Shown here piece after piece: positions 7,927 through 9,205 of a DNA stretch of 35,774 nt. The stretch is from a virus. Its lineage: Duplodnaviria; Heunggongvirae; Uroviricota; Caudoviricetes. A program made the translations under genes and the position numbers. Numbering within the stretch: position 1 is the first letter of the stretch; the number at the start of each line of letters is the position of its first letter. Below the pieces are notes generated by a model. That model saw nothing but the letters and a program-made list of their open reading frames with translations. It was not told where the DNA came from and made no database searches. The stretch is from IMG/VR virus record IMGVR_UViG_2534681674_000025. One strand, given 5' to 3'.

Positions 7927-8886
7927 ATGAAAATTTGTATCGACGACGGCTCCACCAACATCAAGCTGGCATGGACCGAGAGCGGCGAACGCCGCAACGC
8001 CATCAGCCCGAACAGCTTCAAGTCGGAATGGTCTGCGCCGTTCGGTGGCACGCAGCCCGCGAACTACATGCTTGATGGCGTGCGCTATGGTTTTGATCCG
8101 GTCAGCGATCGCTTTGTCCAGACGACCGACACGCAATACCAGTACAGCGATGTGAACGTAATTGCCATTCATCACGCGCTGGTCAAATCAGGCATCACGC
8201 CACAGGAGGTGGATGTGGTTGTCACCCTGCCACTGAGCGAATATTTCGACACAAACGCACAGCCGGACATGGCCAACATCAACCGCAAAAAAGCGAACGT
8301 CATGCGCCCGGTGGAGTGCCAGAACGGTGAGGCATTCACTATCCGTAACGTGCGGGTTATGCCTGAATCCATTCCGGCTGGCTTTAAAGCACTGGCTGAC
8401 ATGAGTCCGTTTGAATCCCTGCTGATTGTGGATTTGGGCGGAACCACGCTGGATGTGGCAAAGGTTCAGGGACAACTGGCAGGTATCAGCCAGGTATTTT
8501 GCGATCCACACATAGGCGTTTCCCTGATGGCCGATGCCGTACTGTCGGTGATGGCCACTAACGGTATGCGTACCAGTCACCACATCGCCAATACCATTAT
8601 CGAACATCGCCATGATGAAGCCTGGCTGCGCCAGCACATCCACAATGACGCGCATTACGCCAGCCTGATGGCGGTTATTCGTGAAAAGGAAGAAACACTG
8701 AAACAACGCGTGATCCGCGCGCTGGCGGGTTTTTCGGGTTACGGGCGGGTGATGGTTGTCGGTGGCGGGGCGGAGATTGTGGCACCCGCTATCCGCGAAG
8801 CCTGCGGAGTTAATGCGACTTTCATAGCGGACGGGGTGCCACAGTTTGCTCTGGTTAATGGGCTGTACGCAATGGACAAGGAGTAA
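7927..8886 (+). CDS. parM: Actin-like segregation ATPase, ParM/StbA family (319 aa)
   Basis: N-terminus MKICIDDGSTNIKLAWTESG...ISPNSFKSEW...YSDVNVIAIHHAL closely parallels plasmid R1 ParM (MLVFIDDGSTNIKLQW...) as recalled; phosphate-binding DxGxT motif, LIVDLGGTTLDV adenosine motif. Confidence 0.85.
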   Translation: MKICIDDGSTNIKLAWTESGERRNAISPNSFKSEWSAPFGGTQPANYMLDGVRYGFDPVSDRFVQTTDTQYQYSDVNVIAIHHALVKSGITPQEVDVVVTLPLSEYFDTNAQPDMANINRKKANVMRPVECQNGEAFTIRNVRVMPESIPAGFKALADMSPFESLLIVDLGGTTLDVAKVQGQLAGISQVFCDPHIGVSLMADAVLSVMATNGMRTSHHIANTIIEHRHDEAWLRQHIHNDAHYASLMAVIREKEETLKQRVIRALAGFSGYGRVMVVGGGAEIVAPAIREACGVNATFIADGVPQFALVNGLYAMDKE

Positions 8887-8890
8887 ACCA

Positions 8891-9205
8891 ATGACGACAC
8901 CAACCAGACGGATAAGTTTCTATCTGAAGCCAGTCGCCGTCAATAGTGAACGGGAGGCGTGTAATTACCTCGACAGCCTGCCAGCCTCTGAACGCAGCCG
9001 CGCGCAACGCGCGGCCTTTCTGGCCGGGCTGGCACTCATAAAACGCGATCCTGCATTTGCCTATTGGTTGGCCGAATGGTCGGAAGAAGGAGCTGCGCCA
9101 GCCAAGAATAATATTCAGAGTAAATATGCCAGCACACCTGCCACCGGAAGCAATCACAGCACTAGCGAGATAAGAAAGAACATTCAGTCATTTTTCCCAG
9201 AGTGA
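8891..9205 (+). CDS. parR: ParR-like centromere-binding adaptor (104 aa)
   Basis: RRISFYLKP...YLDSLPASERSRAQRAAFLAGLAL parallels R1 ParR (RRTIAFKLNP...LDSIPQGERSRLNRAALTAGLAL) as recalled; directly downstream of parM as in the R1 par operon. Confidence 0.7.
   Translation: MTTPTRRISFYLKPVAVNSEREACNYLDSLPASERSRAQRAAFLAGLALIKRDPAFAYWLAEWSEEGAAPAKNNIQSKYASTPATGSNHSTSEIRKNIQSFFPE

Follow-up and report, generated by a model that had tools for sequence, protein, structure and literature searches.

Prophages of the P88-like branch of the P2 family carry, directly behind replication gene A, a pair of open reading frames that profile and structure searches confirm, with scores far beyond chance, as a full-length R1-type ParM and a ParR/StbB-type adaptor. 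The distribution, composition and variation of the pair argue that it is a fixed backbone component of this branch, kept under strong purifying selection. That it constitutes a functional, selected cassette fixed in the P88-like backbone and acting on the transient circular phage genome is a proposition, drawn from comparison of sequences, in which we place moderate confidence. The parMR genes of P88-like prophages are widespread, annotated and already remarked upon in the literature: RefSeq and the PHROGs (partition-protein families 691 and 2515) annotate them, most related phage records label them 'plasmid segregation protein ParM' or 'partition protein', and the phiSM paper merely lists the ParM gene as a 'fitness' factor (PMC6456863). 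A literature search for functional work on the ParM of P2-like phages, of P88 or of Xuanwuvirus gave annotation-level mentions only. The genes, then, are not new; the interest that remains is in what they do in an integrating phage.

The window (the whole stretch of DNA that was analysed, 35,774 nucleotides) is identified by DNA and protein searches as a P2-family prophage, P88-like, of the genus Xuanwuvirus (Peduoviridae). A 2-kb query taken from it is 100% identical to the chromosome of E. coli OkiPb01713; this prophage copy adjoins yecA and is chromosomally integrated. It encodes an integrase, C/Cox and gpA, which bears out the view of the first-pass annotation that the carrier is an integrating P2-family prophage. 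Related phage records include P88, phiSM of Citrobacter rodentium, 520873 and P884B11; these and other members of Xuanwuvirus have the genes at the equal position and 95-99% identical in amino acid sequence, and the window copy differs from them in nothing material (it has an IS629-like insertion downstream, and its palindromes are slightly imperfect). In the source genome, NZ_AP042682.1, there are two matches to parM, and in other genomes as many as three, so that co-resident P88-like prophages must be common. Elsewhere in the window, a match to the sRNA family IS009 (Rfam, 177 bits; 27279-27477, + strand) lies beside a low-GC block (0.36-0.40; 27500-28500) near the tail-fibre region; together (27279-28500) these look like separate prophage cargo. 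The features of the gene A-parMR segment are the following.

5028-7850, + strand: replication endonuclease gene A, long form of 940 aa (Pfam Phage_GPA, E 4e-131)
7784-7894: candidate centromere/operator (parC-like), a 38-nt direct repeat with two 20-bp palindromes
7927-8886, + strand: parM, predicted actin-like (ASKHA) segregation ATPase of 319 aa (Pfam, PDB; PHROG 691 'partition protein')
8891-9205, + strand: parR, candidate centromere-binding adaptor of the ribbon-helix-helix type, 104 aa (Pfam Plasmid_stab_B; 2jd3)

ParM matches Pfam StbA_N (PF06406) over residues 1-157 (E 9e-82) and the ParM C-terminal domain PF21523 over residues 159-316 (E 8e-69), and the R1 ParM structure 1mwk aligns with residues 2-316 (E 3e-93). 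Alignment to R1 ParM also shows that the nucleotide-binding motifs are kept, namely DDGSTNIK (phosphate 1), the glutamate of PESIPAG, DLGGTT (phosphate 2) and GGGAE (adenosine), with only conservative changes in the residues flanking all four. The ParM reading frame (319 aa) is intact in all 86 loci of a set comprising the window, IMG/VR sequences, GTDB genomes and annotated genome, phage and plasmid records; these loci represent 67 different alleles, with dN/dS averaging 0.05. At the level of genes, parM shows the lowest nucleotide diversity of the region (π ~0.02); for the end of A the value is ~0.05, and for the latter half of parR 0.2-0.3.

ParR matches Pfam Plasmid_stab_B (PF10784; E 2e-24), is 45% identical over 58 aa to the DNA-binding head of R1-type ParR (E 2e-16), and gives a weak match to the structure of pB171 ParR (2jd3; E 0.002). 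Its N-terminal DNA-binding domain is conserved, as is its C-terminal tail, which ends in NIQSFFPE; the linker between them is hypervariable. ParR is intact in 83 of 84 loci, with dN/dS of 0.28 in the N-terminal domain; the tail ends in FP[EKDQ] in 83 of 84 and its NI[QR]x[FLM] core is present in nearly all. The tails of plasmid ParR proteins resemble that of the phage protein by sequence comparison, and the conserved tail is probably of the ParM-binding type. Most of the diversity of ParR falls in the linker; the strand that contacts DNA (RRISFYLKP) is conserved, as is the tail. (As an observation in its own right, the diversity of parR in window 8950-9200 is ten times that of parM, π 0.2-0.3 versus 0.02; the DNA-binding head occurs as two main alleles, the hypervariable linker is rich in Pro, Gln and Ser, the last 8 residues are conserved, and a recombination boundary lies inside parR.)

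These searches uphold the identification, made earlier from the letters of the sequence, of a ParM/StbA ATPase and a ParR adaptor in the R1 par order after gene A. Profiles of both families match (StbA_N, 9e-82; PF21523, 8e-69; Plasmid_stab_B, 2e-24), as do PDB structures, and the gaps are 76 nt from the gene A stop codon to parM and 4 nt from parM to parR. The second reading frame had been drawn at 8846-9205: its ParR-like character stands, but its TTG start at 8846 gives way to the annotated ATG at 8891.

Whether the pair belongs to the phage or is a passenger is a separate matter, and concerns also the DNA that follows it.

9225-11233, + strand: variable cargo after parR, two genes of unassigned function (PHROG 660 and 1714) plus an IS
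9225-9677, + strand: gene with its 3' end cut by the IS, with a PHROG assignment that carries no function
9649-10957: IS629-like element of the IS3 family, with 25-bp terminal inverted repeats and an ALIL frameshift pseudoknot (Rfam)
10970-11233, + strand: gene of 87 aa in the variable cargo, after the IS
11268-11288: intrinsic terminator, a bidirectional hairpin then a T-run, the first strong one downstream of A, parM and parR

A tblastn search of 50,697 phage records with ParM finds 14 P88-like records (95-99% identity) and the P1-like phage-plasmid D6 (48%). The 940-aa A protein, used in the same way, finds the same 14 records at full length and 86-98% identity, and the remaining 370 phage records with an A homologue are less than 60% identical; parM is absent from every other phage record that encodes gpA, that is, of P2 type. 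Since ParM and long A pick out the same 14 records, parMR goes one-to-one with the lineage-specific long form of A. The closest plasmid ParM proteins are ~52% identical. The base composition of parM (GC 0.555, GC3 0.653) is that of A and of the capsid gene, whereas an R1-type parM has GC 0.386 and GC3 0.343, and the cargo genes downstream of parR are also lower than the backbone. Between the parR stop and the conserved cos-proximal DNA there are, depending on the relative, ~0.75 kb to >3.9 kb, and the annotated contents of this interval vary from one relative to another (toxin-antitoxin, peptidase/ATPase, PIN and DUF3800 genes). In E. coli 55989, an uninterrupted 143-aa version of the gene at 9225 is followed directly by the 87-aa gene. 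Spacing and contents vary only on the 3' side of parR, and the variable hotspot of P2-type phages therefore begins after it.

Two proposals of the first-pass annotation do not survive this comparison. It had placed the pair as accessory cargo in the hotspot between A and the portal gene. The survey of the locus contradicts this: all 86 loci keep parM, all 14 long-A phage records carry it, the pair is intact in every P88-like locus examined and has backbone GC, and turnover is confined to the DNA after parR. It had also suggested a plasmid-derived moron. A recent acquisition of this kind is ruled out by the ~52% identity to the nearest plasmid ParM, by GC3 at the backbone value and by the strict linkage to long A.

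A further suggestion, that ParR might bind at 11294-11320, is ruled out as well. In this segment the heptamer TGCACAA occurs three times at 10-bp spacing, and a fourth copy lies at 11386-11392; the sets are ~100 bp and 30 bp ahead of a cos-like sequence (GGTGACGGGGGAACAGCCC, ~11418-11436) that is preceded by a GC hairpin. The repeat set is conserved across P88-like loci, and phage P2, which lacks ParMR, has TGCAT repeats in an equivalent layout ~100 bp from cosR. The repeats at 11294-11320 are thus cos-flanking, with a positional counterpart in a phage without the partition genes; they are most simply a feature of the packaging site, and probably terminase recognition elements.

Gene A ends in a lineage-specific C-terminal extension of ~145 aa (residues ~797-940, window 7416-7850), and the other listed P2-family A proteins align to residue ~796-802 only. 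A search of 5.8 billion proteins for homologues of the extension outside the lineage returned fragments of the protein itself and one marginal hit, and is uninformative. A functional link between the extension and ParMR is possible. The annotated nick of the P2 origin is at A codon ~619, which protein alignment places at residues 673-688 of the window A protein; the DNA of the window at ~7050-7085 is recognisably similar to the P2 ori nick region, although there is no match to the exact P2 ori 20-mer within the window. (The predicted rolling-circle origin inside gene A, at window 7040-7090, reads GCCGCCCCTTGGACTCGTGGCAATAACTGT and resembles the P2 ori nick region GCCGCGCCTCGGAGTCCTGTCAATAACTGT.) The predicted origin stretch is the least variable of the region (π 0.003-0.006 among 71 relatives). 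The palindromes upstream of parM were also considered as a rolling-circle origin and are ruled out, the P2 ori nick aligning ~750 bp upstream of them. Among the genes examined, the rolling-circle endonuclease gpA is the sole recognised replication initiator, and no plasmid-type initiator is recognised.

The only candidate for a centromere is the pair of palindromes upstream of parM, where ParR may bind. The palindromes belong to a 38-nt direct repeat (copies at 7784-7821 and 7857-7894) and are each 20 bp long (7800-7819 and 7873-7892), 73 bp apart, with the consensus ACGGGAT-N6-ATCCCGT, to which nothing else in the 35.8-kb window gives a good match. The first lies inside the last codons of gene A. 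Both are found in nearly all related loci, in most of them as perfect 7+7 palindromes; those of the window are imperfect, with one and two mismatches. A-tracts in this region are phased at ~10 bp, as read from the sequence. The region is not conserved in excess of the neighbouring DNA, and ParR alleles and palindrome variants show no covariation. R1 parC, recovered from an IncF plasmid, has 5+5 eleven-bp iterons around its promoter; no R1-like iteron array is found upstream of the phage parM, where there are two clear sites only. A Pantoea plasmid encoding one of the closest ParM proteins has a few palindromic repeats upstream of its parM.

A consensus scan finds neither a σ70 promoter nor a + strand terminator between A and parM, and inspection by eye yields only weak hexamers for a promoter belonging to parMR itself; no known RNA element is found by Rfam in the parMR region. 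The genes lie on the same strand as A, separated from it by 76 nt, and there is no terminator before that at 11268-11288, which suggests co-transcription with the early replication operon, parMR being its distal part. A weak or regulated parMR promoter may nevertheless be active in lysogens, despite the absence of a consensus promoter. Between the second candidate palindrome and the parM ribosome-binding site there is, in addition, a perfect 12-bp palindrome (GATTAATTAATC, 7897-7908) that is highly conserved in relatives; it may serve as an operator or belong to a weak promoter.

The most far-reaching interpretation, for which the case falls somewhat short of even, is that ParMR has been recruited for good, and that a minimal two-palindrome centromere in the end of A serves to segregate or position transient circles, measurably raising the efficiency of lysogenisation or of lytic replication. 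In the mechanism that we tentatively favor, ParR would bind the two palindromes upstream of parM. ParM and ParR would be made with the early replication operon, possibly under autoregulation by ParR, and palindrome-bound ParR would capture ParM filaments, which would then separate or position the circular copies arising from A-dependent rolling-circle replication. This might take place between infection and integration, or once the prophage has excised, during rolling-circle replication. The gain would lie in the presence of a genome in both daughter cells before integration, or in spatially organised replication after induction; the outcome would be more efficient lysogenisation or replication, in the manner of AlpC/AlpA, rather than stable upkeep of a plasmid prophage. 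Several points count against this mechanism. The products of P2-type rolling-circle replication are packaging substrates, and we know of no established need for their active segregation. The two-site candidate centromere is unlike R1 parC, and there is one circular P88-like record.

The phage pair is like the ParMRC systems of plasmids R1/NR1 and pB171 (parA/stb) in both protein families, in the parM-parR order, in the ATP-binding motifs, in the ribbon-helix-helix head and C-terminal tail motif of ParR and in having candidate sites upstream of parM. It is unlike them in residing in an integrated P2-family prophage, directly after a rolling-circle gene A, and its ParM is only ~47-52% identical to plasmid ParM proteins. 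The candidate site also differs from R1 parC, with two 20-bp palindromes, one of them in a coding region, and no consensus promoter, in place of 5+5 eleven-bp iterons.

AlpC is only distantly related to R1 ParM. The AlpC/AlpA system of prophage CGP3 is the only experimentally characterised integrated-prophage analogue that was found: like the pair described here, it couples an actin-like protein with a DNA-binding adaptor in an integrated prophage. In Corynebacterium glutamicum, AlpC/AlpA is induced early and binds the region of its own promoter, and phage DNA is not replicated efficiently without it (PMC4446434). It acts on circular phage DNA after induction, and phage ParMR matches it in gene layout only; moreover, phage type and host are different, AlpC coming from a Gram-positive prophage.

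An alternative is that P88-like phages have a dual lifestyle, persisting as low-copy plasmids as an alternative to integration, with ParMR stabilising the episome; we regard this as unlikely. It was proposed for P88 by Pfeifer et al. (2021), who placed P88 among the phage-plasmids on account of its genes for partition and replication, and suggested that it has both an episomal and an integrative state (PMC7969092). Temperate phages with partition systems are well represented by P1, N15, SSU5, D6 (whose StbA/ParM is 48% identical to the window ParM) and KS14. The last of these, a P2-like Burkholderia phage that exists as a plasmid prophage, demonstrates that plasmid maintenance is compatible with a P2-type virion module (PMC3091744), and other elements with P2-type capsids are found among plasmid records of 30-45 kb. 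KS14 has a RepB initiator and ParA instead, however, and the P88-like lineage, which also retains C/Cox, differs from the phage-plasmids and from KS14 in keeping an integrase and gpA. P1, N15, SSU5, D6 and KS14 exist as plasmids and encode plasmid-type replication initiators. In P2-type phages the immunity repressor shuts off the early operon in lysogens, and gene A, lying in that operon, would be repressed there.

The records of complete genomes bear on the same alternative. Of 5426 complete E. coli genomes, 1303 (~24%) carry parM, O157:H7, O104:H4, UTI89 and ST131 among them, at 1441 chromosomal places as opposed to two on plasmid records (2/1443); a 10.5-kb query spanning int to parR finds 1780 chromosomal places and two on plasmids. 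The lineage is integrated in >99% of cases in these genomes, and existence as a stable plasmid is therefore at most rare and not the rule. PLSDB holds the module in a few very large 'plasmid' records and in one circular record of 34,461 bp. The latter, NZ_CP148288.1, is a complete P88-like genome with its integrase, deposited under a cat isolate of E. coli as a circular 'plasmid', and as such speaks for an episome. Its int-to-parR segment (10.5 kb compared) is on the other hand 100% identical to a chromosomal prophage in the sister isolate Z1323HEC0067, and the circle may be an excised or induced form. An extrachromosomal phase of the P88-like element, in the sense of the first-pass annotation, is possible.

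It is likewise improbable, in our estimate, that the pair has an accessory role, expressed in lysogens and apart from phage DNA, such as interference with plasmid or phage partition (incompatibility, exclusion) or a filament effect at the level of the host. Adjacency of parMR to the P2-type defence and cargo hotspot fits such a role, but within the lineage the pair does not vary, in contrast to the true cargo beside it, which turns over, and no PADLOC defence model matches ParM, ParR or the two downstream ORFs, which speaks against a defence system. The divergence of ParR (π 0.2-0.3, against 0.02 for ParM) could reflect conflict; it is, however, mainly a property of the linker, with the RRISFYLKP strand and the tail conserved, and palindrome variants do not follow ParR alleles. 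Plasmid ParM and ParR are only 45-52% identical to the phage proteins, and cross-reaction with them is therefore unlikely. Retention of the segment from int to parR in a defective prophage at the yecA site of O157:H7 could also be read in favor of an accessory role. (In that prophage, of E. coli NE122, IS elements have removed head, packaging and lysis genes; the integrase, the early operon, A, parM and parR are still intact.) That the pair is an inactive relic of an old plasmid-phage recombination, passively carried, would agree with the small size of the candidate centromere but is effectively excluded by the selection data (86/86 intact parM, dN/dS 0.05, 67 distinct alleles), the ParR head and tail being conserved and the catalytic motifs of ParM intact as well.

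What gives the system its interest is the strong selection under which a plasmid partition machine is retained by a phage that integrates. It is present in ~24% of complete E. coli genomes, including those of O157:H7, O104:H4 and ST131, and a defined role for it, whether in segregation of the pre-integration episome, in organisation of rolling-circle replication or in plasmid interference, would be of broad relevance to prophage biology. If such a role were defined, the P88-like prophages would offer a tractable E. coli model for the use of actin-like filaments by phages. If the most far-reaching interpretation is true, and ParMR has been recruited to act on transient phage circles, AlpAC would have in the pair an R1-type, Gram-negative counterpart, and the pair would be a clear case of selection for a partition system in a lifestyle other than that of a plasmid.
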